NCBI GenBank assembly: GCA_964399675.1
Contig: CAYNRK010000005.1
Span: 766-64,765 of the forward strand
From: an uncultured Gammaproteobacteria bacterium
Lineage (GTDB): Bacteria; Patescibacteriota; Patescibacteriia; UBA9934; GWF2-40-263
DNA: 64,000 nt
Direction of reading: 5' to 3'
Of this stretch, positions 3,465 through 62,334 are shown one piece after another. The notes under the pieces were generated by a model. The model did no database searches. It saw only the letters and a program-made list of their open reading frames with translations, and was not told where the DNA came from. The position numbers were made by a program, and so were the translations under genes. Each line of letters starts with the position of its first letter. The first letter of the stretch is position 1.

Positions 3465-3508
3465 AACGCCTCCTTTTGTAGACGTAAGTTGGTAAGGTGC
3501 AGGGAGTG

Positions 3509-3537
3509 AAGATACCAGAAAATAAGGCTTTTGTCAA
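3509..3537 (-). promoter_or_regulatory. Sigma70-type promoter of paralog 1 (TTGACA-17-TATCTT)
   Basis: rc of 3509-3537 reads TTGACAaaagccttattttctggTATCTT. It is followed by the conserved leader ..ccttaccaacttacgtctacaaaaggagg and then GTG. Confidence 0.55.
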
Positions 3538-3546
3538 TAGTTAAAA

Positions 3547-3575
3547 ACAAAAAATTCCCAAAAATTGGGAATTTT
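3547..3575. promoter_or_regulatory. Perfect dyad aaaaattccc-aaaaatt-gggaattttt upstream of the paralog-1 promoter (candidate operator)
   Basis: 11-bp arms in perfect inverted repeat, centred about 30 bp upstream of the -35. A similar dyad cccccaaaattttgggag occurs at 8698..8730. Confidence 0.35.
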
Positions 3576-3584
3576 TTAATAGAA

Positions 3585-3652
3585 ACACCCGCCGTCGCTC
3601 TTGTAGAGCTATGGCGGGCGAGGCCCCCGTAGCCAGCTGGCCGCGGGGGTGT
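3585..3652 (-). terminator. Terminator region of paralog 2 (two GC hairpins)
   Basis: acccgccgtcgctc..gagctatggcgggcg and cccccgtagccagctggccgcggggg. T-rich on the minus strand after the first (rc of aatagaaac). Confidence 0.45.
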
Positions 3653-3676
3653 ACGTCGTTGAGCTCGACGAGTCGT

Positions 3677-5137
3677 CTACTCGCGAGGGGTGATCGAGGG
3701 AACGCAGTGGCCCTGGATGCTCAGCATCTCGAGCTTGACCTCCGGAACTGTGTTCATGAGTTTTTGGATCTCCGCGGCAAAGCCGGTTGGGAGATCGTGG
3801 AGCGTACAGCGTTTGGCCTTGACCACGACGCCTTGCTTCTGATCACCTTCGGCCTTGGCTCGGGCATCTTCCAGCTCTCCGGCTCGCTTGACCCCCTCCA
3901 GGTACGCTCGGTGGTCGGCATCGGCGTGCTCGGAAGCGCTGAGCTGTCCGTCACCGTCCTTGTCGCCCTTGAGCGGGGTATCGTGGTTCGCCCCCTTGAT
4001 CGGGAGGTCGTCGGCTTCCGGGGCTTTGTCGTGATCCGTGGCTGCCACGACTTCGCCGAGCAGCTCCTCGTAGAACTTCTTGTCCGCCCCGAGCTTTGCG
4101 AGATCATCCTGGGCGTCGTGGATCCAGAGCGCTGCCTCGTCTCCCTCGATGTCGTGTGCGAACACGGCCAGCCAGATCCGGTAGATCCGGATCATGTCTG
4201 CGTCAGCCTTGGACGCGATTGCCCGACGATAGAGCATGCTCTGCATGGGGTTGTCCTTCGCAAAGGATTCTGTGTCGTCCTCGTCCTCTTCGTCGTACTT
4301 GATCTCCTCGTCGAACGTCTCCCAGTCGAACCCGCTTGCTTGCCAGAGCTCGGTGAGTCTCCGGTTGAGCGCATTCCTCTGGGACTCGTTGAGGGTTCGA
4401 ATGGCGGTTCTGATCCAGGGGCCGCTCAAGCGCAGGGCGGTTCTGTTGGCCACGAGTTTTTTGAGGAGCTCCACGATTGGGTCGTACAACGAACCCTCTT
4501 CGCGATCGAACTTGCCGTACGGGATGAACTTGCCCTCGTGGTAGTACCTGTACTGCACGTCCACATCCGGGTTGGCGTGATCGGTTTTCGGGTTGTCCAG
4601 TCCAGACGCGATCAGGCCGGCCAGATCCTGAGGCCTACCTGAGAAGGTTACGGTCTGGGTGACCGCGTCCTTCCTCCAGCTGCTCTCCTTGACCTTGCAT
4701 GTCCAGTAGGTCCGTCCGTCTGCAGGACGGGTTACCAGCACCTGCGATCCCTCCAGCACATTCGTGCTTCTGCTGAGCACCAGGGGAACCGGCGGGAACC
4801 GGTTGTTCTTCAGGATCGGAAGGTCTTTGGGCGCACGCTTCACCTTGCCTCTCAGCAACTTGAAGCTGTCCTTGACGTCTGTTGCGAGCTCTGAGAGCTC
4901 GTCCTGTGCAGCCTGGGCTTTGCTGCGGATCTCTTGCTCTGTAGTCCGCGTTTCCTCGGGGTTGAGCCGCCGTGCAATCTCAGGGGTGCACTCAGTACTG
5001 GTGTCGAACTTGTTGTCCGGATCCGGGAGTGCCTTGGGGGTCTTGACTACCTTGGCTGCGGGTTCTGGCTTGCGATCTGCGCCGCAGGCGCAGAGCATGG
5101 CCGCAGTGGCCACTGCGAGAATGTAGGTGCGTAGCAC
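3677..5137 (-). CDS. Exported lipoprotein-like protein, paralog 2 (unknown function)
   Basis: Start trimmed to the GTG at 5137-5135 (GTG CTA CGC ACC TAC = M L R T Y), analogous to paralog 1 MLRNRY, paralog 4 MLRARV and paralog 3 MRHTY; it is preceded by aaaggag. The ORF-track start at 5194 is a TTG inside the promoter. N-terminus ..AVATAAMLCACGADRK is lipobox-like. Carries the conserved family blocks plus a long acidic C-terminal extension. Confidence 0.6.
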   Translation of the reverse strand: MLRTYILAVATAAMLCACGADRKPEPAAKVVKTPKALPDPDNKFDTSTECTPEIARRLNPEETRTTEQEIRSKAQAAQDELSELATDVKDSFKLLRGKVKRAPKDLPILKNNRFPPVPLVLSRSTNVLEGSQVLVTRPADGRTYWTCKVKESSWRKDAVTQTVTFSGRPQDLAGLIASGLDNPKTDHANPDVDVQYRYYHEGKFIPYGKFDREEGSLYDPIVELLKKLVANRTALRLSGPWIRTAIRTLNESQRNALNRRLTELWQASGFDWETFDEEIKYDEEDEDDTESFAKDNPMQSMLYRRAIASKADADMIRIYRIWLAVFAHDIEGDEAALWIHDAQDDLAKLGADKKFYEELLGEVVAATDHDKAPEADDLPIKGANHDTPLKGDKDGDGQLSASEHADADHRAYLEGVKRAGELEDARAKAEGDQKQGVVVKAKRCTLHDLPTGFAAEIQKLMNTVPEVKLEMLSIQGHCVPSITPRE

Positions 5138-5183
5138 TAGACGTCTCCTTTGTAGACGTAAGTTGGTAAGGTGCGGAGAATGA

Positions 5184-5212
5184 AGATACCACAAAATAGG
5201 CTTTTTGTCAAT
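5184..5212 (-). promoter_or_regulatory. Sigma70-type promoter of paralog 2 (TTGACA-17-TATCTT)
   Basis: rc reads TTGACAaaaagcctattttgtggTATCTT, followed by the conserved leader. Confidence 0.5.
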
Positions 5213-5215
5213 ATT

Positions 5216-5332
5216 CTTGCGTCATTGCGAGGAGGCCATCCGACGGCCGACGAAGCAACCCCGTTTTCGAGTTCGTAAACGAGATTGCTTCGCTTAATAA
5301 GCTATTCTCGCTCGCAATGACGCGAGTTGCAG
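5216..5332. repeat. Nested palindromic MITE/REP-like element (gcgtcattgcgaggagg ... ctcgcaatgacgc)
   Basis: Outer IR cgtcattgcgag / ctcgcaatgacg with an inner IR gaagcaa / ttgcttc. It is an extra ~117 bp here compared with the other three inter-paralog spacers. A partial inverted copy lies at 13585..13640. Confidence 0.45.
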
Positions 5333-5344
5333 TTTTCCAAATAG

Positions 5345-5385
5345 AAACACCCGCCGTCGCTCTTGTTGAGCTATGGCAGGTGAAG
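5345..5385 (-). terminator. Terminator of paralog 3
   Basis: acccgccgtcgctcttgttgagctatggcaggtg hairpin, preceded on plus by aaatagaaac (a T-run on the minus transcript). Confidence 0.45.
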
Positions 5386-5410
5386 TGGCTGGTTAGGCCG
5401 AGAGGGGTGT

Positions 5411-6466
5411 CTACTTGAGGCCTTGGACGAGCCGCTTGTAGAACGACTTGTCTTTCCGGAGCTTCCTGACGTCCTCTTGGACTTCGTGGATCCAGAGTCC
5501 GGCCTGGTCTGCCTCAATGTCTTGCGCAAGCGCTGCCAGCCAGATCCGGTAGATCCGGATCATGTCCTCGCCGATCTTGGAGGCCTTGGCGCGTTGGTAG
5601 AGCATTAGGCACATGGGATCCATTCTGCCGAAGTTGGCTTTTTTCACCCCCGAGTACTTGAGTCGGGTTGCATGCCAGAGCTCGAGAAGCCGTCGGTTGA
5701 GTCCGGTTCGTTGATCTTTGGTCAAGCCTTGCGCGATCTTGCGAACCCAGGGCCCGGCCTTCTTCACCGCCTTTGGGTTGGCGACGAGCTTTCGCAGCAG
5801 CATGACGATCGGGTCCTTGCCGTCGCTTCCTCTGAGGAACTTGCCGTACGGGATGAAATTCCCATTTGCGTAGAAGTGGTGTTGGCCAAAGCTGCCATCG
5901 TCTTTGTGGTTGCCAGGATGATGTGCCAGGCCCTTGACGATCATGCCGGCAAGCGTTCTGGGCAATCCATCGAATGGCACGTTGCGTGTGATCTCGCCTG
6001 ACTTGTCGAATTCTGGCACGACCTCGCAGGTGATATAGGTATAGTTGTCTGCCTTACGGGTCTTGGCAGGACAGTTGGGAGCGAGTCCTTTTTTGAAACG
6101 GACAGTGACGTTCACTGGAACCTGAGGGAACCTGCCTTTTCTGAGCAAGGGCAGATTCCTGGGAGCGTTTTTGATCCGCTCGTTGAGGTGGATCATCCCG
6201 TGATGTACGTCACTCTCGATGGCCTGGAAGTCTGTACGTGCCTTTTTTTCATGCTCGCGCAGTTGAGCTTCTGCACGATTGACCGAGTTTGGATGGAGCC
6301 TTGACCCCACCTCTACGGTGCATTGGTTGCACTCGCAATAGTCTGGAGCCGAGCCCAACAGTTTCGGTTCTTTCCCGGACGACTCGTCCGATGATGACTC
6401 ATCCGATCCGCTGCAAGCGCACAGCATGGCCGAAACGACCATTGCGAGAATGTAGGTATGACGCAT
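5411..6466 (-). CDS. Exported lipoprotein-like protein, paralog 3 (unknown function)
   Basis: ATG start. MRHTYILAMVVSAMLCACSGSDESSSDESSGKEP has a signal + Cys + Ser-rich linker. Conserved blocks: GPWVRKIAQGL, LMLYQRAKASKIGEDMIRIYRIWL, LWIHEVQEDVRKL. Confidence 0.65.
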   Translation of the reverse strand: MRHTYILAMVVSAMLCACSGSDESSSDESSGKEPKLLGSAPDYCECNQCTVEVGSRLHPNSVNRAEAQLREHEKKARTDFQAIESDVHHGMIHLNERIKNAPRNLPLLRKGRFPQVPVNVTVRFKKGLAPNCPAKTRKADNYTYITCEVVPEFDKSGEITRNVPFDGLPRTLAGMIVKGLAHHPGNHKDDGSFGQHHFYANGNFIPYGKFLRGSDGKDPIVMLLRKLVANPKAVKKAGPWVRKIAQGLTKDQRTGLNRRLLELWHATRLKYSGVKKANFGRMDPMCLMLYQRAKASKIGEDMIRIYRIWLAALAQDIEADQAGLWIHEVQEDVRKLRKDKSFYKRLVQGLK

Positions 6467-6513
6467 TGGCCGTCTCCTTGTGGTAGACGTAGGTTGATAA
6501 GGTACGGAGAGTT

Positions 6514-6542
6514 AAGATACTACAAAATCAGCTTTTTGTCAA
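6514..6542 (-). promoter_or_regulatory. Sigma70-type promoter of paralog 3 (TTGACA-17-TATCTT)
   Basis: rc reads TTGACAaaaagctgattttgtagTATCTT plus the conserved leader. Confidence 0.5.
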
Positions 6543-6549
6543 TAATAGA

Positions 6550-6585
6550 AACACCCCCGCGGTCAGCTGGTTGCGGGGGTATGTG
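6550..6585 (-). terminator. Terminator of paralog 4
   Basis: cccccgcggtcagctggttgcggggg hairpin; minus transcript continues tgtttctattatt. Confidence 0.5.
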
Positions 6586-6606
6586 TGTTGAGCCAAGAAG
6601 TCCTGT

Positions 6607-7728
6607 CTATTCCTCTTCCACTTTCTTGGGAAGGTTGAGGCGCGAGATGAGCAGCCTATACTTGTGTTTGTCCCTCTCGAGCTTCTTGAGATCCTCGCGG
6701 ACAACGTGCGCCCACTTGGCAACCTGGGCCTCTGCTCCTGCGTCGTGCGCGAACGTGATCAGCCAGGCTCTGTAGATCCTCATGAGATCTTCGCCAATGC
6801 GGGAAGCGAGCGCGCGACGGTACATGAGGCCGTGCATTTCGTTTCCGTCACTTTGTGTGAAGTCCTTATCGGCGTTGACCTGCTTGGCGAACTCGTCAAA
6901 GTCAAAGACGGTTGCCTTCCACAACTCCTCGAATCGCCCTGACAACACTCGTTTTTGCCCTTCGGGCAAAAGCTTGATCACCTTACGAACCCACGGTCCA
7001 GCATGTAGCAAGAAGAAGGGAGACACTACGAGCTCTTTGAGTTTTTCAGTGATTGGATCATGAATTGACCCATTAGGCTCGAAAGTTACCAAAGGGATGA
7101 ATCCGAATCCTTCTTCTGCGTCATAGTTGGAGTAGTACGTGTATTGTTCGTTGGTGTCTTCGAATCCAAAATCTTCGATTTTGTATAGTACCAGCCCTGC
7201 GAGTTCACGCGGGTTTCCAGAGAATTGCCCCATGTTTTCGTGGGTCATGTATTCGGTGTGATTGGTTATGCAGGTCGTATATGCGAGACCATCGGATTCG
7301 CGTTCCATTTCGAATTCGTAGGTTTCGAGATAGTTTTCTGGAACACTGAGCCAGAAGACGGGTTTTGCAAGCTGCACCTTTTTCTTTAGCTTGAATGGAG
7401 TTTTTGGAAGACTCCTTCCAAGCTCAAAGGCGCTTTTCAACGATGCTTTTACCCCTTCGATTTTTTTGGGATTTGCAGCCTCAGCATCTTCGAACTCTTT
7501 TTTGGATGATGCAGAGTGCTCTGGATCAAGCTTCCCAGCCATCACCTCAGTGCACTCCTCACCTTCCTTGAGTTCATTGCTTGGTCTGGGAAGCGGTTGA
7601 GGTTCAATGTCTGTTTGCGCGACTGGTTTTGGTGCTTCTGCGTTCGGGCTGAAACGCCAGAGCAGAAGAACTGCTGCGGCCAAGATCAAGGCCGCTCCGA
7701 CTACTGCAGCTACTCTTGCACGTAGCAT
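6607..7728 (-). CDS. Exported protein, paralog 4 (unknown function)
   Basis: ATG start. N-terminal hydrophobic anchor. Conserved blocks shared with paralog 1 along the whole length (PSNELKEGEECTE.., RELAGL, GPWVRKVIKLL, LMYRRALASRIGEDLMRIYRAWLITFAHD, WAHVVREDLKKL). Confidence 0.65.
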   Translation of the reverse strand: MLRARVAAVVGAALILAAAVLLLWRFSPNAEAPKPVAQTDIEPQPLPRPSNELKEGEECTEVMAGKLDPEHSASSKKEFEDAEAANPKKIEGVKASLKSAFELGRSLPKTPFKLKKKVQLAKPVFWLSVPENYLETYEFEMERESDGLAYTTCITNHTEYMTHENMGQFSGNPRELAGLVLYKIEDFGFEDTNEQYTYYSNYDAEEGFGFIPLVTFEPNGSIHDPITEKLKELVVSPFFLLHAGPWVRKVIKLLPEGQKRVLSGRFEELWKATVFDFDEFAKQVNADKDFTQSDGNEMHGLMYRRALASRIGEDLMRIYRAWLITFAHDAGAEAQVAKWAHVVREDLKKLERDKHKYRLLISRLNLPKKVEEE

Positions 7729-7768
7729 CGGTACTCTCCTTGATCGTATTGGTAAGGTGCGGAGAGTT

Positions 7769-7797
7769 AAGATATTACAAAATTAGCTTTTTGTCAA
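7769..7797 (-). promoter_or_regulatory. Sigma70-type promoter of paralog 4 (TTGACA-17-TATCTT)
   Basis: rc reads TTGACAaaaagctaattttgtaaTATCTT plus the conserved leader. Confidence 0.5.
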
Positions 7798-7804
7798 TAC
7801 GAAA

Positions 7805-7840
7805 CACCCGAGGAGTTTTTCGGGTGTGAGTCTGGTGTTG
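7805..7840 (-). terminator. Terminator of membrane-protein gene 7861..8670
   Basis: cacccgaggagtttttcgggtg hairpin; minus transcript followed by tttcgtatt. Confidence 0.4.
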
Positions 7841-7860
7841 AGTTGCCCTTTTGGGCGAGC

Positions 7861-8670
7861 CTATGGGTTCGGGCGGAGCCGGATCAGTTCGTTCAGATTC
7901 TGGTCCCAGGTGTGCATCAGCTTGAGCTGCACGATTACGCCACGATGCCCTTCGGAGAATCGCACTTGAAGGGGTGAATCAGCCAGGAGGTGTAGGTCGA
8001 GCGTTTCGAGAAGGTCGATCAGTCGACCACGCATCTTGCGCATGCCTTTGAGCCATTCCGCGTGGTCGTTGAGGTATGACTCAGGGTGAGTCACGTTTTC
8101 TTCGAGCCAGATGACCTCTTTGGCCCAGCGGGCTCTGAGGGTTCGCAGGCCTTTGAACCACGCGCACCTGAAGTCTGGGCTGATGTCGATGAACCTGCGC
8201 ATGAGGTGTCGGTTTTTTTCCGACAACCAGAACGCCAGGTAGTACCCAGCGAACACGGCCGCAAACATCACGAGCAAGATGTGTGCCGGAAAGGCACGTT
8301 CATTCACGAAGCTTGTGAAGCTGATGCCATCGGGCCGTGGACTGCTCAGGATTGCTGCGGTTGTGCCAAAGGCCATGATGAATGTGATGATGCACACCAC
8401 CATGTAGTCTGGCGGTACGTGCGCGATGAGGACAATGACGCCTATCATGTGCAGCAGCGCCAGGACGCGTTGCAGCAAGATGATTCGTTGGGTCCTTTGT
8501 TGTAGCGAACGAGCATGTGCTGGTTGCAGCGAAAGCAGATTGAACAGGTACAGAACACGTGACGTCAGAACATCATCGTTGATCCGCCTGATGTCGAGAG
8601 CGTTAGTAGCGGTGGTTGTCAATTCATTTCCCCTGGAGTGGTTCCTGCCAACGACAAAAGCTATCATCAT
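7861..8670 (-). CDS. Hypothetical integral membrane protein
   Basis: 269-aa ORF in the same orientation and GC-rich block as the paralogs, with several predicted TM helices (VIVLIAHV.., VVCIITFIMAFGTTAAIL, ILLVMFAAVFAGYYLAFWL). No recognisable motifs. Confidence 0.45.
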   Translation of the reverse strand: MMIAFVVGRNHSRGNELTTTATNALDIRRINDDVLTSRVLYLFNLLSLQPAHARSLQQRTQRIILLQRVLALLHMIGVIVLIAHVPPDYMVVCIITFIMAFGTTAAILSSPRPDGISFTSFVNERAFPAHILLVMFAAVFAGYYLAFWLSEKNRHLMRRFIDISPDFRCAWFKGLRTLRARWAKEVIWLEENVTHPESYLNDHAEWLKGMRKMRGRLIDLLETLDLHLLADSPLQVRFSEGHRGVIVQLKLMHTWDQNLNELIRLRPNP

Positions 8671-8697
8671 CCCAGCCTTTTGTCAATTATAGAAAAC

Positions 8698-8730
8698 AAA
8701 AGACCCCCAAAATTTTGGGAGTCTTTTGGT
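8698..8730. promoter_or_regulatory. Dyad cccccaaaattttgggag near the promoter of 7861..8670
   Basis: Near-palindrome aagaccccc-aaaatttt-gggagtctt next to cttttgtcaat (rc attgacaaaag, -35-like). Same CCCAAAA-TTTGGG core as 3547..3575. Confidence 0.3.
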
Positions 8731-9228
8731 GTCTCAGGATATGTCTGTAAGCCGAATTTTGTCTTCCCTTGGTTTTCACCAAGAGGAGGTGGAAATCTAT
8801 CTAGCCTGACCATTGCTGGCCAGATCATGCGAGCTACCAAATTTGCTCTTACACCGGAAAGGGTTTGCCACGTCTCCATGTCACCATGGGACGAAACATG
8901 TAGCAGATGAAATAAATCTCAACCACACCATGTCACTTTTCACGTTTCATTCAGCCGAAGCTGAACTAGTATCGTCTCTGCGGCACTTTCCCTAGGCTTA
9001 AGTTCAGATGCCAAGGAGTGAATAAATCCAACTCCTCGATTTCTGATTTGTATACCCGGTCGCCGTTAGCGACTTTCCTTTTTTTGTAAGGTTGCCCTAT
9101 ACAAAGGTGTTCGGACTTTCCTCGTATCCACAAAGGACACGTATCCACCCGACATTCCTGGGACGCGGAGATAGTACCAAAGATAGGACAAAAAGTCAAG
9201 GTTGTTTACTTTAATTAAGTTAAAACGA

Positions 9229-9262
9229 AAACCCGCCGTTGCTCCTTCGGAGCTATGGCGGG
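9229..9262 (-). terminator. Terminator of 9316..10335
   Basis: cccgccgttgctccttcggagctatggcggg hairpin; minus transcript followed by ttttcgtttt. Confidence 0.45.
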
Positions 9263-9315
9263 CAGGCGCGCTCTTGGCGCGTTGAGTGGGGTCGTGTTTT
9301 TTGAAACTGTCTTTG

Positions 9316-10335
9316 TCAGGCAGCTTCTTCCAGTTGGCTGTAGTCTTGCGTGGCGTTGAAGGCTTCGATCCTTCGGACGATCTCTCCATCACCTTCTCGG
9401 ATGAAGCTTCCGCCTTTGCAAGCCAGGCCCTCGTCGTCCAGACCAACGAAGATAGTGATGCCGCGTCCTTCGCCGTACTGTACTGCCTTGACCACGTTGA
9501 CTAGACGCGGCGGAGTGAACGAACCGTCCTTGAGTGCTGTTTCAAGCGGAGTGCCGCTAGCAGCAAACGTTGGGTTCAGGTGCATGGAGATGACTGCGCC
9601 AGGAATGCGATCCTGAATTCGGCTCAGGTAGTCGATTGCAGCCTGGATGTCAGCGACAGCTTCCTCTTCTGTCATGCCAGGCACTGGCTTGAACATGAAG
9701 TAGCACTTGGTATGGAAACCGTGCTTGGCAAGTCTTGCAACCAGCCTTTCGAACTGGTTGAGCGGAAGTCCTTTGAGAAAGACCCGCTCTCTGATTTGAT
9801 TGTCAAAGGCCTCGAATCCGACTGCGACTTCGAACGTGGTTGGGGTCTGCCCCTCGTCCACTGCCCGCCTGACGAATTCGAGCTCAGCGTCGTCCACGTA
9901 CTCTGCACGCGACTCAAACGAGAGAACCGCCATGTTGGGCAAGTGCTTGTTGCACATTGCAATGAAGTAGACGAGCGCAGCTGAGGAAAAGGTCTTCTGG
10001 TCAAGGACTGAGCCTTGGTTGCTGACGATTACCTTTCTGATCTTTTGGGCTCGAGTCTTGATCTCGTGGTGGTTGAACAGGTATTTGACCTGCTCCATGA
10101 TGTCCTCGAAACCGATGTGGTTTCGTGATGCTGTTGACGGCAGGTTGCAGCTAATGCATCTTTGCCATCTGCACGCTTGGGTGTGGAAGATCACGAACAG
10201 GACCAGGCCCTCGTGCGAGTTCTGGAAGAAGAACCTTACCGGACGAGTTGGGTCATGGTTGTCGTCAAACTCGTGAGTCTTGCCAACTGCCTTGTGGCCG
10301 CGTTCGATCCTTTGGCGTGTAGTTTCGTGTGGCAT
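9316..10335 (-). CDS. Putative radical-SAM-like enzyme (noncanonical CX4CX2C cluster)
   Basis: 339-aa GC-rich ORF. N-terminal HTQACRWQRCISCNL (Cys-x4-Cys-x2-Cys) followed by Gly-rich/TIM-barrel-like segments. Family assignment is uncertain; possibly a TIGR01210/RaSEA-like archaeosine-type radical SAM enzyme. Confidence 0.35.
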   Translation of the reverse strand: MPHETTRQRIERGHKAVGKTHEFDDNHDPTRPVRFFFQNSHEGLVLFVIFHTQACRWQRCISCNLPSTASRNHIGFEDIMEQVKYLFNHHEIKTRAQKIRKVIVSNQGSVLDQKTFSSAALVYFIAMCNKHLPNMAVLSFESRAEYVDDAELEFVRRAVDEGQTPTTFEVAVGFEAFDNQIRERVFLKGLPLNQFERLVARLAKHGFHTKCYFMFKPVPGMTEEEAVADIQAAIDYLSRIQDRIPGAVISMHLNPTFAASGTPLETALKDGSFTPPRLVNVVKAVQYGEGRGITIFVGLDDEGLACKGGSFIREGDGEIVRRIEAFNATQDYSQLEEAA

Positions 10336-15659: not shown

Positions 15660-15902
15660 AGGTGTTTTTAACGCAGGAACTCTAACAAAGCGTTGGCTTT
15701 TCGTCAATGCTTTAACTTTTTTGGTGTAGCAAAGCGTTTCATTCCTTTTCCACTCATGCGCATTTTAGTTTTCTTTTTCTTTTCCCTGCGCTCTGCACGT
15801 TTTTTTTCTTTTGCTTCTGCGTTGTTCATAGGTCTTATAGGTCAAATAGGACCTATTTGATTTCTGATAAGGGTTTCATTTATATGATATACTTTTTACT
15901 AT

Positions 15903-16643
15903 ATGAACGCCACGCCAGATGTGGTTGAGAATCAAAAAAGAAGTTGGATTGCAACGATCATAACTCTCGTTGTGCTTTTGGGTCTTGGTGCGTTTGCATG
16001 GAAAGTTGTTCGTTATGCTGATCTAATTAGTTCAGGTGAAATAAATACACTTGTTCAAGAACTTGATGGAACATATTCAGCCAGTGTTGTCCTTTCAACT
16101 ACCCCTATCCCAGACGGTGAGTTTGATGTATTAAGCACGGATGATCCTACATTGGGTGTTTCAAATGCGCCTGTTACTATTGTTGAGTTTGCAGATTTTG
16201 GCTGTCCTTATTCTCGTAGGTCAAGTTTGGTGATGAGAGAACTTGCAATGGAATATCCAACTTACATTAATTACACCTATCGTGACTTTCCGCTTGTTGA
16301 GCTTTATCCTTTTGCAAACAAGGCTGCTGAAGCAGGTCAGTGTGCGCATGATCAAGGAAAGTTTTGGGAGTATCATGACAAGTTGTATCAGAACCAAAAC
16401 AGACTTGATGAACAAGCGCTTTTTGATTTTGCATCGTCACTTAATATGAACACTCGTTTATTTAAGTCATGTCTTGAATCAGGAAAATACACAGAGGAGG
16501 TTCAAAAAGATTATGAAGATGGTGTTGAGGCTGGTGTCCGTGGCACACCAACATTTTTTATTAATGGCAATAGAGTTTCTGGGAGCATTCCAAAGGATGT
16601 GTTAGATCAAATCATCCAAAGTATTGTAAAGAATAGTTTATGA
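15903..16643 (+). CDS. DsbA-family thioredoxin-fold protein with a CPYS (CXXS) active-site motif, membrane-anchored
   Basis: N-terminal TM. VTIVEFADFGCPYSRRS sits at the position of the DsbA CPHC motif, but the second Cys is Ser. C-terminal GTPTFFINGNRVSG is a typical DsbA cis-Pro region. Its stop overlaps the start of 16640..18091 (ATGA). Confidence 0.7.
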   Translation: MNATPDVVENQKRSWIATIITLVVLLGLGAFAWKVVRYADLISSGEINTLVQELDGTYSASVVLSTTPIPDGEFDVLSTDDPTLGVSNAPVTIVEFADFGCPYSRRSSLVMRELAMEYPTYINYTYRDFPLVELYPFANKAAEAGQCAHDQGKFWEYHDKLYQNQNRLDEQALFDFASSLNMNTRLFKSCLESGKYTEEVQKDYEDGVEAGVRGTPTFFINGNRVSGSIPKDVLDQIIQSIVKNSL

Positions 16644-18091
16644 CAAGATCGTTTTCAAAAAGTATAAGACTTGCAATGATCGCAATGACGATCATGCTTG
16701 GTTTTTCATTTGCCTCACCAGCAAACGCACAAGCAACTCCTCCAGAGCCTTGCACTTGTTTTTGTAAAACAAAAGAAGATGGTGCAGTAGCAGAAAAAAC
16801 CAAAATGATTCCATCTGTATGTAGTTCTGCTTGCAATGATAAGAAAACAGGGAAAATTGGAGTCGCAGTGTGTGCTTACAGTTTTTCTGAATACCCAAGT
16901 CGCAGATTGAGTTGTTTTACAGAAGATGAATGTATTGGAAAAAATTATAAAGGTCTTTGGGATGCAAAATATAAACCACCAGAATGTCCGAAAAGCATGC
17001 GTTATTGTTATCCAGATCCTGCCAAGGGGAAGAAGACAAAACTTAATGTAGCGATCGGAGATTTGGAAATCACAGCTGACATTGGTGAGTATATGAGCCA
17101 GATGTATCGATTTTTATTAGGTGCAGGAATTGCCATTGCCATTGTTCTTACAATGGTAGGTGGCCTTCAATATGTTTTAGCTGCCGGTTCCGGACAAGTT
17201 ACAAGTGCAAAAAAACGTATTACAAATTCAATTACAGGACTTGTATTGTTGGTGTTTGCTTACACAATTCTCTACACTATTAATCCAAATCTTGTAACAC
17301 TTAAGGTTCCAAGTTTTCCAATTATTAAAACTGTGATATTGGCGGCAGAGAATTCTTGTGAGCAAATGATAAAAGATGGATTTGTTATTGAGCGTGAAGA
17401 CAACGGACAGAAACTTAGAGCATCATTTAAAGGCGTTGTTAAATGTGGGGTCATGGGCAAGGTTATTTCAGATGCAGCAGGTCAACAGGTTTCAGAAGGT
17501 GCGACTTGTCAGTTTGTTGGCTGTCCAAAAGATAAAAAATGTCTTGGTATTGGTAAAAATGCGATTTGTGGAGCCTGCACTGACGTATATCCTGATGCAG
17601 TAGAAAAAACCGGTGTTAAACCAAGTGAGTCGGTCTGTCAAGGATTAAAAAAGGACAATGTTGTCAAAGCGGGTGTAACAACAGAATGGAATTATTGTTG
17701 GCATTCACGAGATTTGGATTTACTTTTTGATAATTTTGATAAAGCCGGATATGCTGTTGGGGCTGGTACGGGCCCCCTTGGTGTTGCACTTGCTGCAAAA
17801 GTTGCAACAAACGATCTTCAATATGGAATTTGTTCTGAATTAAAAATAGATTGTTCGGAAATTACCAATTGTAAAAAATATGAAGACCTTAAAGTTAAGA
17901 CGTATCAATTAACAGAGGATTTGGATGATGTGCGAAGTAGCGACTGGGGTGCTGGAAATGTTAACTTAACCACGATTTGTGAATCTGATCCATGTGGGGT
18001 TGGAAAAGCGAAACCAGGAAAGGCAGCAGATCCGTGTCAGGTTGGTCTAGATGCTGAAGCAAATGATTGCGATCATGCATCAAATTGGTAG
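16640..18091 (+). CDS. Cysteine-rich secreted/membrane protein with a TrbC/VirB2-like double-TM pilin core
   Basis: Signal peptide (..SFASPANAQA), about 34 Cys in the extracellular regions, and a central pilin-like segment GEYMSQMYRFLLGAGIAIAIVLTMVGGLQYVLAAGSGQVTSAKKRITNSITGLVLLVFAYTILYTINPNL. Confidence 0.5.
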   Translation: MTRSFSKSIRLAMIAMTIMLGFSFASPANAQATPPEPCTCFCKTKEDGAVAEKTKMIPSVCSSACNDKKTGKIGVAVCAYSFSEYPSRRLSCFTEDECIGKNYKGLWDAKYKPPECPKSMRYCYPDPAKGKKTKLNVAIGDLEITADIGEYMSQMYRFLLGAGIAIAIVLTMVGGLQYVLAAGSGQVTSAKKRITNSITGLVLLVFAYTILYTINPNLVTLKVPSFPIIKTVILAAENSCEQMIKDGFVIEREDNGQKLRASFKGVVKCGVMGKVISDAAGQQVSEGATCQFVGCPKDKKCLGIGKNAICGACTDVYPDAVEKTGVKPSESVCQGLKKDNVVKAGVTTEWNYCWHSRDLDLLFDNFDKAGYAVGAGTGPLGVALAAKVATNDLQYGICSELKIDCSEITNCKKYEDLKVKTYQLTEDLDDVRSSDWGAGNVNLTTICESDPCGVGKAKPGKAADPCQVGLDAEANDCDHASNW

Positions 18092-18104: not shown

Positions 18105-18148
18105 ACAAAAAAACAGGCAAGAGGTGAGTCTCTTGCCTGTTTTTATTT
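18105..18148 (+). terminator. Rho-independent terminator
   Basis: acaggcaagag-gtga-gtctcttgcctgt followed by ttttatttt. Confidence 0.6.
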
Positions 18149-21327: not shown

Positions 21328-22107
21328 ATGAGTGACAAAAGAGTCGTCTCTAACAGAGACGAACTGGCGCTTCGGCGTCAGTGGGATGAGGTTCTTCAGC
21401 AGGTTTTGCGTGACTCTGGCATGTTTGCGCAATTGCGCTACTGCGTGCAGCAAGTTGGCGAGGGTCACAACATTGTCGATCCTGCGCAACTTGGCCAGGC
21501 AAAGCAAAAGCACAACCGCGCTCAGGAACGCCAGCAGGCCATGGAGACGTTCTACCGCGATCTCGGGTTCGACGAGCTCGAGATCCCTGTGCCCACAATG
21601 GACGGCAAGCCAATCTCCAACCGCGAGTTCGGTCGAAGAGCAAAGGCCAACCAAGCGCTTTTTTACCGTCCGGCCACTTCGGACGTCTCCTACGAGGCGT
21701 TCATGCAGGCCGTGGGTCAGGACGAGCACTGGACGGTCGCGGACGAGGACGAGCGTGCAAAGATCGCCTGGGAGCCCACTGAGGAAGGCTACTGGTTCTG
21801 GGCTGAGGTCCAGGACAGCTGCCCACGTACGGGCACGTGTTGGAACGACCTCACTGCCGAGCACACCCTTCTCTGCATTGAGGAGTACGTGATCGTTTGG
21901 CATGCCATGCGCGTGCTCGAGGACACGCTCATCGATCGTTCTACGTGGTCTTGGCTGCGAACACGCTACCAGACCGATTCCGGCTCCGGTGCCCTCTACG
22001 TCTTCGAGTACGATGGCGGGGTGGACGTCTACAGGAGCAGGCCTGAGCACTTGTCGATCGACTACGACTACGTTGGCGGTCGTGTCTCGGAAGTGGTCAA
22101 CCTCTGA
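21328..22107 (+). CDS. DGR target (variable) protein with C-terminal variable repeat
   Basis: 259-aa GC-rich ORF. The last ~42 codons (..DSGSGALYVFEYDGGVDVYRSRPEHLSIDYDYVGGRVSEVVNL) are a diversified copy of the TR at 22470..22595. The VR ends 5 nt before the stop, as is usual for DGR targets. A CLec/FGE-like fold is inference. Confidence 0.8.
   Translation: MSDKRVVSNRDELALRRQWDEVLQQVLRDSGMFAQLRYCVQQVGEGHNIVDPAQLGQAKQKHNRAQERQQAMETFYRDLGFDELEIPVPTMDGKPISNREFGRRAKANQALFYRPATSDVSYEAFMQAVGQDEHWTVADEDERAKIAWEPTEEGYWFWAEVQDSCPRTGTCWNDLTAEHTLLCIEEYVIVWHAMRVLEDTLIDRSTWSWLRTRYQTDSGSGALYVFEYDGGVDVYRSRPEHLSIDYDYVGGRVSEVVNL
21977..22102 (+). repeat. DGR variable repeat (VR)
   Basis: 126 nt aligned to the TR with 15 mismatches. 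14 of them are at TR adenines (VR has T, TT, G, G, G, T, G, C, T, TT, G ...); one is at a TR thymine. Confidence 0.85.
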
Positions 22108-22469
22108 GTCTTGTGACTTGAGAGCCTGGGTCTCCTGTTCACCTGTCTCTTGTTCCCCAACGTCGAGCTGCGCTCGACGTTGGGGGATTTTCAATTAAGC
22201 TCAATTTTTGAGATAATCATCTTGATGAAGGTTCGTAGATTCAAGTTTTCTGAATTTGGATTACCAACATCCTCTGGTTATTGATGAGAGTCTATGCTTA
22301 ATAAGCAAAGAGAGGTCAATAACTAGCAGAAATAAAGTTGACCACTTCGTGCTGTTTTTAGTGTGGATAGCCATAACTGGCTTGCCACTGCAGTCTCCTC
22401 CGAAGCTCGGAGTACAGAAGGTGACCTGCGGGTTTCCTTTGGTGATTACGGATGGGAACAGCACAATGC

Positions 22470-22595
22470 AATCCGGCTCCGGTGCCCTCAACGTCAACGA
22501 GTACAATGGCAGGGTGAACGTCAACAGGAACAGGCCTGAGAACTTGTCGATCGACTACGACAACGAAGGCGGTCGTGTCTCGGTAGTAGTCAACC
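22470..22595 (+). repeat. DGR template repeat (TR)
   Basis: Non-mutated, A-rich cognate of the VR; in frame it is full of AAC/AAT codons (..ALNVNEYNGRVNVNRNRPENLSIDYDNEGGRVSVVVN). 363 nt downstream of the target stop, upstream of avd/RT. Confidence 0.85.
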
Positions 22596-22601
22596 AAACA
22601 G

Positions 22602-22626
22602 AAAACGTCCCTTTGTGGGACGTTTT
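22602..22626. other. Perfect 10-bp stem-loop immediately 3' of the TR
   Basis: aaaacgtccc-tttgt-gggacgtttt. It could be the structured RNA element flanking the TR (used for priming in characterised DGRs) and/or the terminator of the convergent avd gene. Confidence 0.45.
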
Positions 22627-22628
22627 CG

Positions 22629-23042
22629 CTATGGGTCAAGGCCGAGTTTTTTTCTTGTATTCTTTCGCCAACTTCCTAGCATCTTTCCAATTTTTTGCAA
22701 ACGTTCTTGTCGATATGTGTATCCTTGAAGCTTATAAATACCAAGGTCATGGATAAGTCTAATGAAAATTTTCATCAAGTCCAATTTTCTTTGGGTTTTA
22801 TCAAGCAAGATTATTCTTTCTGGTAATGAAAGATTATTTGCTTCCCACACAGATTCGATGATATAGAGTGTGTTGTTTTTCAGTTTTTCACCAATGGCAT
22901 ATCGTTCTGTTTTAGGATATCGACTCACATCCATGTGTAATAGTTTGTACCATTCATAGAGTTTATGTATCAATCCGAACTCTTCACCAACAAATCCTGT
23001 GAGCCATTTATCAAGTCCCGTGAGGGGGGGCTTAATTGTCAT
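22629..23042 (-). CDS. avd: Accessory variability determinant (Avd)-like four-helix-bundle protein
   Basis: 137-aa basic protein with the Avd / 23S-rRNA-IVS-protein family signature ..RYPKTERYAIGEKLKNNTLYIIESVWEAN.. (PK-E-R-Y-x-[IL]-x-x-[KQ]-L pattern). Sits between the TR and the RT on the opposite strand. Confidence 0.6.
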   Translation of the reverse strand: MTIKPPLTGLDKWLTGFVGEEFGLIHKLYEWYKLLHMDVSRYPKTERYAIGEKLKNNTLYIIESVWEANNLSLPERIILLDKTQRKLDLMKIFIRLIHDLGIYKLQGYTYRQERLQKIGKMLGSWRKNTRKKLGLDP

Positions 23043-24068
23043 AGTTTATTTGATAATTGCATATCGTTTGAAAATTTATATCTTGCTTGGGAAGATTTTC
23101 GGAAAGGTAAGATGTTTAAAGCAGATATTCTTGCGTTTTCCATGCATCTTGAAGATGAATTATTTTGTCTTCATCAAGAGCTTTCGACAGGCACATATCA
23201 ACATGGAACTTACAAACAGTTTTATGTTCATGACCCAAAGCGACGATTAATTAGCAAAGCAAGCGTGCGGGATCGGGTGGTTCATCAGGCGATTGTAGAT
23301 ACGATCGGTCATCATTTTGAGAAGAGCTTTATTCATGATACTTATTCTTCTTTGGTTGGAAAAGGTGTTCATCCGGCTGTGAATCGTCTTGATAAATTTT
23401 TAAGGCAAGCCTCAAGTAATGGTCAACATATCGTCTATGCACTCAAATGTGACATTAGTAAGTACTTTGACTCGATCAGACACGACATCCTTCTCTCATT
23501 TATAAGAGATCGTATCGAAGATGAAAAGATGCATGCTCTTATTGAAATCATCGTTCATAGTTTTTCGTCAGACAAACAAAAAATACGTGGGTTACCTCTT
23601 GGAAATACTACAAGTCAATTGTTTGCCAATGTTTATCTTGATCGATTTGATCATTGGATAAAGGAACGCTTGCGCGTGCGGTGGCACGTTAGATTCTGTG
23701 ACGACTTTGTTATTTTACATGAAGACAAAGAATTACTTAACCGACTGTTAGAACCAATTCAACAATATCTTACTCGAGAATTGGATTTACAACTACATCC
23801 AAACAAAATTGTTATCAGAAAATATTCGCAGGGGATTGATTTTTTAGGTCAGATTTTGCGACCTTATTGTCGGACAATGCGCAAGAAAACAAAGAAACGA
23901 GCTATTAGAAATACACATACACGGGTTTTGGAGTACAAAAAGGGTGAAATTACAGACGGGGAATTTCGGTCATCGATTCAGTCGTATGTTGGGTTACTCA
24001 AACACGTTTCAGAGAGAAAGCTATACTATTTAATCAAGGAAATTTGTTTAGTTTTAGTTAAAAAATAG
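22965..24068 (+). CDS. DGR reverse transcriptase
   Basis: RT motifs: ISKASVRDRVVHQAI (motif 1), ALKCDISKYFDSIRH (motif 2), GLPLGNTTSQLF (the [ILV]GxxxSQ motif-4 signature that distinguishes DGR RTs from the group II QGxxxSP), RFCDDFVIL (catalytic DD), GIDFLGQ. The true start may be the GTG at 23021; the 5' end overlaps the divergent avd start. Confidence 0.9.
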   Translation: MYQSELFTNKSCEPFIKSREGGLNCHSLFDNCISFENLYLAWEDFRKGKMFKADILAFSMHLEDELFCLHQELSTGTYQHGTYKQFYVHDPKRRLISKASVRDRVVHQAIVDTIGHHFEKSFIHDTYSSLVGKGVHPAVNRLDKFLRQASSNGQHIVYALKCDISKYFDSIRHDILLSFIRDRIEDEKMHALIEIIVHSFSSDKQKIRGLPLGNTTSQLFANVYLDRFDHWIKERLRVRWHVRFCDDFVILHEDKELLNRLLEPIQQYLTRELDLQLHPNKIVIRKYSQGIDFLGQILRPYCRTMRKKTKKRAIRNTHTRVLEYKKGEITDGEFRSSIQSYVGLLKHVSERKLYYLIKEICLVLVKK

Positions 24069-24221: not shown

Positions 24222-25934
24222 ATGCTTAAGAAATCAATTACTATTCTCGCGGTCCTTGCGATCGCTGTGAGCCCACTCCTTCCATCAGCCCAGGCGGACG
24301 ATGGTTCTTGGCATTCTGTGATTGCAGAGTCAAGTTGGGATTACGATTTTTATCGGGTTCAACAGGTTGCTTTTGATAAGAATGTCAGTGACCTGCACGA
24401 GCTTGGAGATGCTGTGTTTGTAACACAAACGTCTGAGTTGTGTGAGTACGAAGATTTGTGTAACCAAGTGGACGTAACAGTTTTCAAAGACGGTTCGTCT
24501 CGAACAATCAGTGGTGTAGACAATCGTATTACTTCACCGTTTTGGCACTTAGCTCAAGATGATCACTTTGTTTATTTTATCCCATCAGAAGGCGAGGATA
24601 AGTGGCTAACAGTTTTTGAATACGATTCGGTTCTTGGAACAATAAACGAACTTACAGAACTCGAGCGTGAAGAAAAGGAACTCAAGTTCATGACTCTTGC
24701 TACAGACAGTAATCGAGTTTATACATCGATTATTCGTGAAGAGCCTGAGTCACATGAAGTAGAAACGATGCTTTCTGTTAATGACTTTGAAAATGGTTTT
24801 GAGCGAGATGATTTCACTTCAACTCTAACTGCTCCATGGCAGGAGATTGTTGATGTGCGTGAAAACGTTGCGCTTGTGAAGTTTCAGTTTGAAGGTGGGT
24901 TTAAGCAACTTTGGTTGGTTGATCAAACCAATCGTCAGATGGATTCAATTCCGAAAACCTGGACAGAACCCCATGCTGATCTTATTGCCCCACACTTTCG
25001 TTCAGATGGAACAGTGAGTTACTTCCAAAACTTTCGACGATATACATATGATCCATCAGTAGAGAATGCACAGCCAATTGAACACGGCGGCGCATACCTA
25101 AACTGGTTGGAAGATCCTGCTGATGTAATTCAGGTTAGCGGTGATCGGGTTGCTTGGGTTGACGACACCAACATGCTTTATGTAAGTGATGTAAATGGTG
25201 TGAGTAAATTCGGAATTGCTCTTAACGGTTTGTTTGCTCTTGGAAATGATAATATCTATTTTCAGAGTGTAGACGGCTATATGGGATACAGTTTTTCTAC
25301 AGGTACATGGGTTAAACGAGCTTTCCACGTAACAGATACTTATGAGGATATTGTTGTCGGTATTGATGAAAATCAAAATATTTGGTACGAAAACACCACA
25401 AGTGGATACATGCTCAATATGGGGTATGGATCTGAGCCACTTCTTTCTGACCGCGAACATGCGTATTGGAAAGGTGTGGATGGAAAGGTGTATCAGGTAA
25501 GTTTCTCAGGTCTTCTTGATGTGCAGATGCCAGAGGTTCAAGCCTATAGTTCTTATAACAGCGACAAGATTTATCTTATTTCAGAAAATAAGATTTCACA
25601 TGTTCCAAACCCTGATGTTTATTTCAGCTACTTTGACTCATATTCACAGGTAAAGAATGTGACAAGTGCAACTTTGGATGTGTATAAGGATTTGTATCAA
25701 GATGCCGGTCAGGCCGGGTTTGCAGTAGGAACACGAATCAAAGCAAAAAACAATTCCCGTGTTTACGTTGTTGGAACAGATGGAAAACTTCACTGGATTA
25801 TTTCTGAAACCGTTGCTGATTCAATTTATGGATCAGATTGGAATCAGGGAATCATGGAAGTGAATCCTGAGTATCTGTGGCGATACGCACACGGAACAAA
25901 TATTGCATCCGGAAAAGCAATGAAAACAATTTAA
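24222..25934 (+). CDS. Hypothetical secreted protein
   Basis: 570 aa with a signal peptide (MLKKSITILAVLAIAVSPLLPSAQA). No recognisable catalytic motif; aromatic/Gly-rich segments may be beta-propeller-like. Confidence 0.5.
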   Translation: MLKKSITILAVLAIAVSPLLPSAQADDGSWHSVIAESSWDYDFYRVQQVAFDKNVSDLHELGDAVFVTQTSELCEYEDLCNQVDVTVFKDGSSRTISGVDNRITSPFWHLAQDDHFVYFIPSEGEDKWLTVFEYDSVLGTINELTELEREEKELKFMTLATDSNRVYTSIIREEPESHEVETMLSVNDFENGFERDDFTSTLTAPWQEIVDVRENVALVKFQFEGGFKQLWLVDQTNRQMDSIPKTWTEPHADLIAPHFRSDGTVSYFQNFRRYTYDPSVENAQPIEHGGAYLNWLEDPADVIQVSGDRVAWVDDTNMLYVSDVNGVSKFGIALNGLFALGNDNIYFQSVDGYMGYSFSTGTWVKRAFHVTDTYEDIVVGIDENQNIWYENTTSGYMLNMGYGSEPLLSDREHAYWKGVDGKVYQVSFSGLLDVQMPEVQAYSSYNSDKIYLISENKISHVPNPDVYFSYFDSYSQVKNVTSATLDVYKDLYQDAGQAGFAVGTRIKAKNNSRVYVVGTDGKLHWIISETVADSIYGSDWNQGIMEVNPEYLWRYAHGTNIASGKAMKTI

Positions 25935-53907: not shown

Positions 53908-53934
53908 TTATTTAGATTAATGTAGGCAATAGTT

Positions 53935-62313: not shown

Positions 62314-62334
62314 AGGGGGCAAGATGAATAAATT

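Follow-up and report, generated by a model that had tools for sequence, protein, structure and literature searches.

A two-gene unit of a groundwater ultra-small bacterium, Candidatus Uhrbacteria (Patescibacteria, candidate phyla radiation or CPR), pairs a membrane-anchored DsbA-family protein that has kept only the nucleophilic cysteine of its active site (open reading frame (ORF) A) with a cysteine-rich protein built around a VirB2-like hairpin (ORF B). The two same-strand ORFs lie in a 64,000-nt stretch of contig CAYNRK010000005.1; this whole stretch is called the window here, and all coordinates are positions in it (Table 1). Extracytoplasmic disulfide formation in bacteria is understood almost wholly through dithiol DsbA enzymes, which are recycled by quinone-linked DsbB or by VKOR. 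The conserved pair described here suggests an unusual way to fold disulfide-rich proteins without this usual recycling machinery. As far as can be judged from sequence, it is a clean and conserved anomaly in oxidative protein folding rather than a new category, and its function is deduced.

ORF A is a DsbA-family protein, with a thioredoxin fold and an inserted alpha-helical domain. It matches the Pfam families Thioredoxin_4 (PF13462, 5.5e-26) and DSBA (PF01323, 6.7e-19) above the gathering score and has more than 7000 homologues. In the AlphaFold2 (AF2) model, built with 32 homologues and having a predicted local distance difference test score (pLDDT) of 86, the thioredoxin core is interrupted by the helical insertion, the order of elements being beta-alpha-beta, four or five helices and beta-beta-alpha. 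The best Foldseek matches were all DsbA-like oxidoreductases, namely 3gyk, Corynebacterium diphtheriae DsbA/TsdA, BdbD, ScsC, Wolbachia alpha-DsbA2 and Salmonella BcfH, with a Foldseek probability of 1.00 for 3gyk, 4pwo, 3eu3 and 6eez. At the sequence level the conserved cis-proline loop of the family is present as well: G-T215-P216-T aligns with the GTP(S/A)F loop of solved DsbAs, from which the cis conformation is taken, and T215-P216 is invariant in an alignment of 32 sequences (A1) and present in 72 of 73 relatives.

The CxxC redox dithiol that DsbA-family members carry at the N terminus of helix 1 is absent from ORF A, which reads CPYS. The register was checked by a phmmer search against all PDB chains, in which FADFGCPYSRRS of ORF A aligned with FFDYNCPYCRRA and FSDFECPFCARW of solved DsbAs. 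The segment efadfgCPYSrrs is placed against effdynCPYCrra of 3gyk and efsdfeCPFCarw of C. diphtheriae 4pwo, with S104 opposite the second cysteine of the CPYC or CPFC motif in 3gyk, 4pwo and 7unn; in 7uno, which is annotated as TsdA with the C129S mutation, this segment is efsdfeCPFSarw. By these alignments S104 falls on the very residue that is the resolving cysteine in solved DsbAs. ORF A has no intact CxxC at any other site, its other cysteines being only C147 and C190. The original prediction, made from the letters of the window alone, had described a DsbA-family gene with CPYS in which serine replaces the resolving cysteine; the Pfam matches, the four codons and the register against solved DsbAs all bear this out, and the true active site that might have been found elsewhere did not materialise. 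Selenocysteine or recoding was considered and rejected, as the S104 codon is TCT rather than TGA, and as the best NCBIfam match, to a (seleno)lipoprotein family, scored 97 bits where the cutoff is 190.

The serine is not peculiar to this genome. The best 120 homologues of ORF A are 50-71% identical to it and, where named, belong to Candidatus Uhrbacteria or Patescibacteria. CxxS was found in 112 of them (CPYS in 84, CPFS in 21, others in 7) and CxxC in three. The remaining five, which appeared to carry CPFK, CPFG or CPFA, were traced to MAFFT mis-registration of tandem two-domain DsbAs; these are really CPFC and are followed by an unrelated gene. Among single-domain homologues, the frequency of CxxS is therefore 112/115, and the conservation of the variant in homologous operons, which the original prediction had named as a check, is established. 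C101 is invariant in A1 and is the first residue of the motif in all 120 homologues, while P102, also invariant in A1, is replaced in 8/120. Since TCT, TCA and TCG all occur at the S104 position across loci, the amino acid is kept while the third codon position drifts synonymously. In a neighbour-joining tree, the topology of which is not robust at deep nodes, the CxxS sequences form one clade nested among CxxC sequences of Patescibacteria, and the three CxxC exceptions group together in a small subclade well within it and so suggest reversion. One ancient loss of the resolving cysteine followed by rare reversion is the likely history, and the monothiol state is a clade trait under selection, with only the nucleophilic cysteine kept.

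These data also bear on the trivial explanation that CxxS is a sequencing error or the mark of a decaying pseudogene, and that the pilin-like call for ORF B is a chance hydrophobic match. TCT and TGT are indeed one base apart; however, the 112 independent homologues come from many assemblies and use three different serine codons, an identical ORF A protein occurs on 8 contigs and an identical ORF B protein on 9, both AF2 models are of high confidence, and the pilin family PF18895 is matched above its gathering score here and in 4 orthologues. The clade-wide occurrence of CxxS with synonymous serine codons rules out the error or pseudogene, and the explanation as a whole has a negligible probability.

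The two remaining cysteines of ORF A, C147 and C190, are invariant in 120/120 homologues. In 73 more distant relatives the corresponding positions are C/C in 59, A/A in 11 and F/A in 2, the C/C state being normal in canonical CxxC members. The pair is best interpreted as a putative structural disulfide of the helical domain. That the resolving cysteine had been relocated to C147 or C190 was ruled out, because the pair covaries and occurs in CxxC relatives. A DsbA relative from a Nanobdellati/DPANN archaeon (L079:5779-6705, JACNFY010000019.1) keeps the equivalent pair and carries CPYT, a second and independent monothiol (CxxT) variant; the gene 3' of it encodes a 157-aa (amino acid) protein with two transmembrane (TM) segments and a weak DUF7343/MarR-like match, which is not pilin-like.

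The catalytic domain is tethered by an N-terminal TM helix recognized by hydropathy. AF2 gives a helix over aa 5-44; a conserved juxtamembrane helix follows the TM segment and leads into a low-confidence linker (aa 47-79, with pLDDT <50 at aa 47-58). The signal-anchor helix and the covarying cysteine pair would place the ectodomain outside the cytoplasmic membrane. The mean identity to consensus of the TM and juxtamembrane stretch (15939-16040, aa 13-46) is 0.58-0.66, the TM itself having 0.66, compared with 0.71 for the catalytic domain, 0.41 for the N-terminal tail and 0.48 for the linker; R13, T21, F31, K34, I42 and G45 of the anchor are at least 90% conserved. It is unusual for an anchor to be conserved to this degree, and a specific partner within the membrane may exist, for which the ORF B hairpin or the Sec machinery would be candidates.

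ORF B was predicted to have about 34 cysteines; the count is in fact 26, with 10 before the hairpin (aa 38-123) and 16 after it (aa 240-477). Cysteine makes up 5.4% of its residues, whereas the remaining 47 genes of the window have 0.98% (binomial P ~6e-12). By the AxA rule, the signal peptide would be cleaved after A-N-A30. In the AF2 model (pLDDT 88.7, predicted template modelling score 0.69) a beta-rich N-terminal domain is followed by two long helices, at aa 148-184 and aa 187-214, which hydropathy also marks as a hydrophobic hairpin, and then by a C-terminal domain of mixed structure. One strand of the N-terminal ectodomain has the conserved pattern C-x-C-[FYW]-C, and the helix after it carries C61-x3-C65; as a pattern, this combination recalls a cysteine-stabilised alpha/beta arrangement; a Foldseek search with the whole model against the PDB gave nothing significant (best E 0.09). 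As for the TrbC/VirB2-like double-TM core that had been proposed, the hairpin matches the Pfam family T4SS_pilin (PF18895) with 34.5 bits, above the gathering score of 26.6, so that the pilin-like hairpin survives the profile search that could have removed it; TrbC (PF04956) is matched only weakly (E 0.034).

Relatives of ORF B were collected by an exhaustive HMMER search of 1.84 billion representatives, as a word-indexed homologue search gave only 7 proteins even with a 67-sequence profile. The exhaustive search returned 153 full-length representatives at E<1e-30 and 12,145 matches at E<1e-3, most of the latter presumably hitting through the hairpin. In an alignment of 67 sequences (~33% identity to the query) the mean column identity is 18%, and yet 21 cysteine columns are invariant and 3 more are conserved in at least 90%, giving 24 of the 26. 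On examining 102 full-length relatives, the modal cysteine number was 10 in the N-terminal domain (in 69/102) and 16 in the C-terminal domain; the C-terminal count is even in 100/102 and the mature total, after a crude signal-peptide cut, in 80/102. Because the counts are conserved and mostly even, about 13 intramolecular disulfides (5 + 8) and no conserved free cysteine are expected. An N-out/C-out topology is predicted from the signal peptide, the positive-inside rule and the KKR loop that joins the two helices; this loop would be cytoplasmic, with the two cysteine-rich domains on the outside of the cell. This is also the topology of VirB2-type pilins.

ORF B has the signal peptide, the two hydrophobic helices and the short positive loop of VirB2/TrbC proteins. 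It is not, however, a small hairpin-only mature protein, as its ~66-aa hairpin is flanked by ectodomains of ~115 and ~260 aa, and it is not linked to the machinery of a type IV secretion system (T4SS): Pfam identified no T4SS genes among the 48 genes of the window or in orthologue neighbourhoods of up to 20 kb, and the window holds no second pilin-like gene. A membrane-anchored surface protein is more likely than a polymerising pilin, which the length of 483 aa and the lack of T4SS genes in the window do not support. ORF B is probably a core cell-surface protein, possibly for host contact, and probably not a subunit of a conjugative-type pilus. Elsewhere, a T4SS_pilin-type hairpin was found fused to a 3D domain (PF06725) or Amidase_2 domain (PF01510) in the metagenomic proteins P0126 and P0127; since these carry such domains, the hairpin seems to be a modular anchor for different ectodomains in this phylum.

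Table 1 Features of the ORF A-ORF B region (positions in the window)
Feature	Position	Strand	Description
Promoter-like site	15864-15893	+	CTGATA, 18 nt spacer, TATACT, TG extended -10; ~10 nt 5' of ORF A start
ORF A	15903-16643	+	246 aa, membrane-anchored monothiol DsbA-family protein
ORF A TM signal-anchor helix	15939-16016	+	aa ~13-38, by hydropathy
ORF A active-site motif C101-P-Y-S104	16203-16214	+	TGT CCT TAT TCT; Ser at the resolving-Cys position
ORF A C147	16341-16343	+	half of putative structural disulfide, helical insertion domain
ORF A C190	16470-16472	+	putative partner of C147
ORF A T215-P216 of G-T-P-T	16545-16550	+	counterpart of the thioredoxin-fold cis-proline loop
ATGA overlap	16640-16643	+	ORF A stop TGA overlaps ORF B start ATG
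ORF B	16640-18091	+	483-aa precursor, cysteine-rich, VirB2-like hairpin
ORF B signal peptide	16640-16729	+	aa 1-30, MTRSFSKSIRLAMIAMTIMLGFSFASPANA, then QA; AF2 helix aa 6-23
ORF B N-terminal ectodomain	16730-17074	+	aa 31-145, beta-rich, 10 Cys
ORF B two-helix hairpin	17081-17278	+	aa 148-213, VirB2-like; conserved T-[IV]-N-P at end
ORF B C-terminal ectodomain	17312-18088	+	aa 225-483, 16 Cys, mixed alpha/beta
Intrinsic terminator	18109-18144, to 18154 with T-rich tail	+	16-bp stem (6 GC pairs), 4-nt loop; 3' of ORF B

The overlap of the ORF A stop with the ORF B start as ATGA, noted in the original prediction, was confirmed. The promoter-like site before ORF A sits in the divergent intergenic region shared with secG. 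It is a consensus match only, such sites being no commoner in the region than in shuffled sequence, and its position fits a short-leader operon start. Because this site precedes ORF A and a strong intrinsic terminator follows ORF B, the unit is, as predicted from its signals, a bicistronic chromosomal operon. The overlapping or nearly abutting frames, with one promoter-like site and one terminator, indicate probable co-expression of the two genes.

For the conservation of the pair, one genome per species was scanned for DsbA relatives (80 loci) and the downstream genes were inspected, together with the contigs of individual homologues. A cysteine-rich hairpin protein is encoded directly 3' of the CxxS DsbA in 13 of 14 contexts (the window, L001, L002, L003, L004, L007, L008, L060, L084, the P0019 contig, L086, L087 and L088), so that the pairing is conserved in homologous operons. 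The gap between the two genes is -4 to +28 nt in most loci; the 4-nt overlap recurs in L088, L082 and the P0098 contig, and +1 to +28 nt is seen in most others. Four ORF B-type partners were re-scanned and all pass PF18895. Among Myxococcota, Chloroflexota, Acidobacteriota, archaea and other lineages, about 60 loci with a CxxC DsbA were inspected, and no such partner was next to any of them.

In the mechanism proposed for the pair, the DsbA fold of ORF A would be held on the outer face of the cytoplasmic membrane by its N-terminal TM helix; it retains C101, the CP[YF] motif start of its CxxC relatives, the cis-Pro loop and the putative C147-C190 disulfide. With serine in place of the resolving cysteine it cannot form an intramolecular active-site disulfide, and can therefore be neither a self-contained two-electron oxidant nor a substrate for canonical DsbB/VKOR recycling. 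The C101 thiolate would attack substrate disulfides, or would itself be attacked as a mixed disulfide, which the substrate's own thiols would resolve with no recycling partner required. ORF B, predicted to be Sec-exported, hairpin-anchored and co-transcribed with ORF A, would be the main client. Thioredoxin-fold proteins with CxxS, yeast Eug1p among them, are unable to carry oxidising equivalents but suited to shuffling (PMC2195995). A shuffling catalyst and chaperone is favoured because a CxxS site stores no disulfide but forms and resolves mixed disulfides. We give about an even chance to ORF A being a recycling-free disulfide-shuffling catalyst and thiol-dependent chaperone with ORF B as its principal client. 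The dedicated isomerase/chaperone of the original prediction is retained to this extent, as a role suggested by gene linkage and by the chemistry of CxxS thioredoxin folds.

Several observations weigh against this assignment. The CPFS DsbA of L018 (Magasanikbacteria) has no partner downstream, the gene 3' of it being RpiB-like by raw translation alone. Conversely, two CxxC DsbAs do have the partner: the CPFC protein of L012 (Magasanikbacteria) is followed by an 852-aa protein with 42 Cys, and that of the P0098 contig, after a 4-nt overlap, by a 572-aa T4SS_pilin protein. As CPFC versions share the partner type, the pairing predates the loss of the second cysteine and can be separated from it; a monothiol DsbA is thus no precondition for serving ORF B. 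The unusual combination of a monothiol enzyme with a cysteine-rich hairpin protein thus stands in so far as both are conserved, and the causal tie between them does not. Moreover, every Uhrbacteria contig examined has the same syntenic block of RNase J, SBP_bac_5, SecG (reverse), DsbA, the hairpin protein, UvrA and the 570-aa unknown protein, and adjacency within so deeply conserved a block could be inherited synteny rather than functional coupling. The main weakness concerns the source of oxidising equivalents: if ORF A is the sole extracytoplasmic thiol oxidoreductase, a pure isomerase does not account for the origin of 13 disulfides.

The synteny admits a reading in which ORF A helps extracytoplasmic proteins in general to fold or assemble, perhaps for the most part without redox chemistry like TraF of the F plasmid, and its adjacency to ORF B is inherited, ORF B being no specific client. 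The invariant housekeeping block (SecG upstream, UvrA downstream) fits this, as do the status of ORF A as the sole DsbA-like gene of the window, the conservation of the TM and juxtamembrane region (0.66), a sign of a possible partner in the membrane, for instance the Sec machinery, and the fact that F-like T4SSs encode a thioredoxin-fold TraF without CxxC (PMC11315126). A redox-dead scaffold, however, is hard to reconcile with C101 in all 120 close homologues and an invariant cis-Pro loop, which argue for thiol chemistry; the frames and transcription signals speak for co-expression, and the pairing also extends to Magasanikbacteria (L012). Such a general role is considered unlikely. It is far less probable again that ORF A and ORF B form a stable intermolecular disulfide, either as a covalent tether or by ERp44-like thiol-mediated retention, within one surface complex. 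CxxS and CxxA variants of the thioredoxin fold are classic mixed-disulfide traps (PMC2195995), both proteins are predicted to be anchored on the same face of the membrane, and their genes overlap; the even cysteine counts of ORF B relatives, with no conserved unpaired cysteine, and the occurrence of the same partner beside CxxC versions of ORF A nevertheless make this very improbable.

The question of oxidising equivalents directs attention to redox partners. A Pfam scan of the 48 genes in the 64-kb window revealed no VKOR, DsbB or second DsbA, ORF A being the only DsbA-like gene there, and no VKOR or DsbB was adjacent to or fused with the related DsbAs examined; candidates beside or fused to these turned out to be Lgt, DUF1622, HMA and SurA_N domains. 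Uhrbacteria are expected to be without quinones and a respiratory chain. For the supply of oxidising equivalents, a net oxidase with a monothiol mechanism has to be weighed: C101 would be charged by an external oxidant, through S-thiolation by a low-molecular-weight disulfide, persulfide formation by polysulfide or sulfenate formation by peroxide, and passed to the substrate as a mixed disulfide that a second substrate thiol resolves, replacing the quinone-dependent DsbB/VKOR cycle. This would supply the ~13 disulfides of ORF B and the one of ORF A itself, and would agree with the missing DsbB, VKOR and second DsbA. Polysulfides are reported to drive anaerobic disulfide formation (PMC11921322), and monothiol exchange is established chemistry for glutaredoxins (PMC5885593). 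Against it, no candidate oxidant or binding site was identified; the DsbB/VKOR search covered the 64-kb window, so that a canonical oxidase may exist elsewhere in the genome; VKOR is present in another class of Patescibacteria, the Saccharibacteria (PMC9040727); and the rare serine-to-cysteine versions inside the clade suggest that the fold still works as a dithiol enzyme. The monothiol oxidase is accordingly given a low probability.

A bolder synthesis, which we regard as improbable, is that Uhrbacteria replaced the DsbA-DsbB/VKOR cycle by a recycling-free single-cysteine DsbA drawing on an oxidant of the environment or host (low-molecular-weight disulfides, polysulfide or peroxide) to build a lineage-defining, 13-disulfide host-contact surface organelle on a VirB2-like hairpin. 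If true, disulfides would be formed outside the cytoplasm in a new way, and the T4SS pilin module would have acquired a new architectural role.

Irrespective of which role applies to ORF A, a whole lineage in which purifying selection keeps the nucleophilic cysteine alone while a surface protein of ~13 predicted disulfides is made is a natural experiment on a stand-alone DsbA-fold shuffling or monothiol catalyst, and it bears on the supply of disulfides in organisms with a minimal, probably non-respiring metabolism. ORF B, a core, fast-evolving and disulfide-knotted ectodomain on a VirB2-like hairpin remote from T4SS genes in the regions examined, is a candidate surface or host-contact structure of the CPR, in which the T4SS pilin module of Patescibacteria would serve to anchor large ectodomains. 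As both genes are small and could be expressed, the hypotheses are directly testable.

Other features of the window were recorded in passing. A diversity-generating retroelement (DGR) spans 21328-24068, with a reverse transcriptase (Pfam RVT_1, 5.4e-22) at 22965-24068 (+) and a pair of 124-nt repeats (21979-22102 and 22472-22595) that are 89% identical. In 14/15 mismatches the second copy has A and the first another base; therefore 22472-22595 is taken as the template repeat and 21979-22102 as the variable repeat, which forms the 3' end of an ORF at 21328-22107 (+, 259 aa). On comparison with syntenic Uhrbacteria contigs, the DGR was apparently inserted between uvrA and the 570-aa ORF (24222-25934, +), which has no Pfam match. 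ORFs of 514-570 aa without Pfam match also follow uvrA in the P0019 contig, L084, L086 and L088, and the 570-aa ORF looks like a lineage-conserved protein of unassigned function. Six ORFs of 268-504 aa without Pfam match at E<=1e-5 form a run at 2331-10335 (-), between a Bac_transf sugar transferase gene and a Trp/Tyr-tRNA synthetase gene; the syntenic P0019 and P0077 contigs have far fewer genes at this place, and the run may be an insertion of unknown genes.

A polysaccharide-biosynthesis island of ~30 kb occupies the region ~27000-56000, between cmk/rplS and an RluD-like gene that are nearly adjacent to each other in related contigs. It contains many GT1, GT2 and GT4 glycosyltransferases, a GDP-mannose dehydratase, epimerases, a carbamoyltransferase, methyltransferases, a Wzx-like flippase, two tandem 680-aa Wzy_C + TPR proteins (51841-55980) and an IS110-family transposase (39122-40165). 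At 48787-49625 (-) a UDP-glucose/GDP-mannose dehydrogenase is split into the overlapping ORFs 49128-49625 (N-terminal NAD domain) and 48787-49155 (central domain), with the C-terminal domain missing, and is probably a frameshifted or decaying gene. Further on, a 637-aa protein (59531-61444, +) has an N-terminal cohesin domain (PF00963, 1.3e-9) and may belong to a further surface assembly; the two ORFs after it (61465-63522) have no Pfam match.

In public annotations, ORF A genes are called "DsbA family protein" and ORF B relatives "hypothetical protein", "pilin" or "VirB2 component". Our literature search yielded no paper on a natural bacterial extracytoplasmic CxxS DsbA clade or its link to a cysteine-rich hairpin protein, and none linking Patescibacteria with DsbA, disulfides or cysteine-rich pilins. 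A paper on VirB2-like pilins of Patescibacteria, which makes no mention of DsbA or cysteine-rich pilins, reports them from 1,948 assemblies, where they frequently form arrays and frequently lie close to virB4 (PMC12102498). ORF B shares with them the signal peptide and a hairpin matching PF18895, but differs in its large size, in being single-copy rather than part of an array, in the lack of linkage to virB4 or a T4SS in the neighbourhoods examined and in always following a DsbA gene.

Linkage of a thiol-oxidoreductase-fold gene to a cysteine-rich appendage or T4SS component is likewise known for Salmonella BcfH and SrgA, Vibrio TcpG and TrbB/TraF of the F plasmid. TrbB, a disulfide isomerase and chaperone, has an intact CxxC; TraF, also of thioredoxin fold, has no such motif (PMC11315126). 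These proteins work in a diderm periplasm with a full DsbA/DsbB background and are encoded in accessory operons or on plasmids, whereas ORF A is a core chromosomal gene in a housekeeping block with no T4SS genes nearby; it keeps the nucleophilic cysteine only, unlike TrbB with its CxxC and TraF with no active-site cysteine.

The active site itself has its counterpart in yeast Eug1p, ERp44, CxxS isoforms of protein disulfide isomerase (PDI) and monothiol glutaredoxins, in which, as in ORF A, the first cysteine is kept and the second is replaced by serine on a thioredoxin fold. Natural CxxS proteins of this fold act via mixed disulfides, in shuffling or retention (PMC2195995, PMC13628048). They have the PDI or glutaredoxin sub-fold and reside in the eukaryotic endoplasmic reticulum or cytosol, and as their homology to ORF A is limited to the thioredoxin core, the comparison is functional and not one of homology.

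By sequence and fold, the closest known proteins are the MdbA/BdbD/TsdA-type DsbAs of monoderms, namely MdbA of Actinomyces and Corynebacterium, DsbA/TsdA of C. diphtheriae and BdbD of Bacillus subtilis, which share with ORF A the DsbA fold with helical insertion, the N-terminal membrane anchor and the threonine before the cis-proline. MdbA is required for the oxidative folding of pilins in Actinobacteria. Proteins of this type have CxxC and are recycled by VKOR or BdbC, whereas the ORF A clade has serine at the second position, no VKOR or DsbB gene found nearby and, as its putative client, a VirB2-like hairpin protein instead of a sortase pilin.

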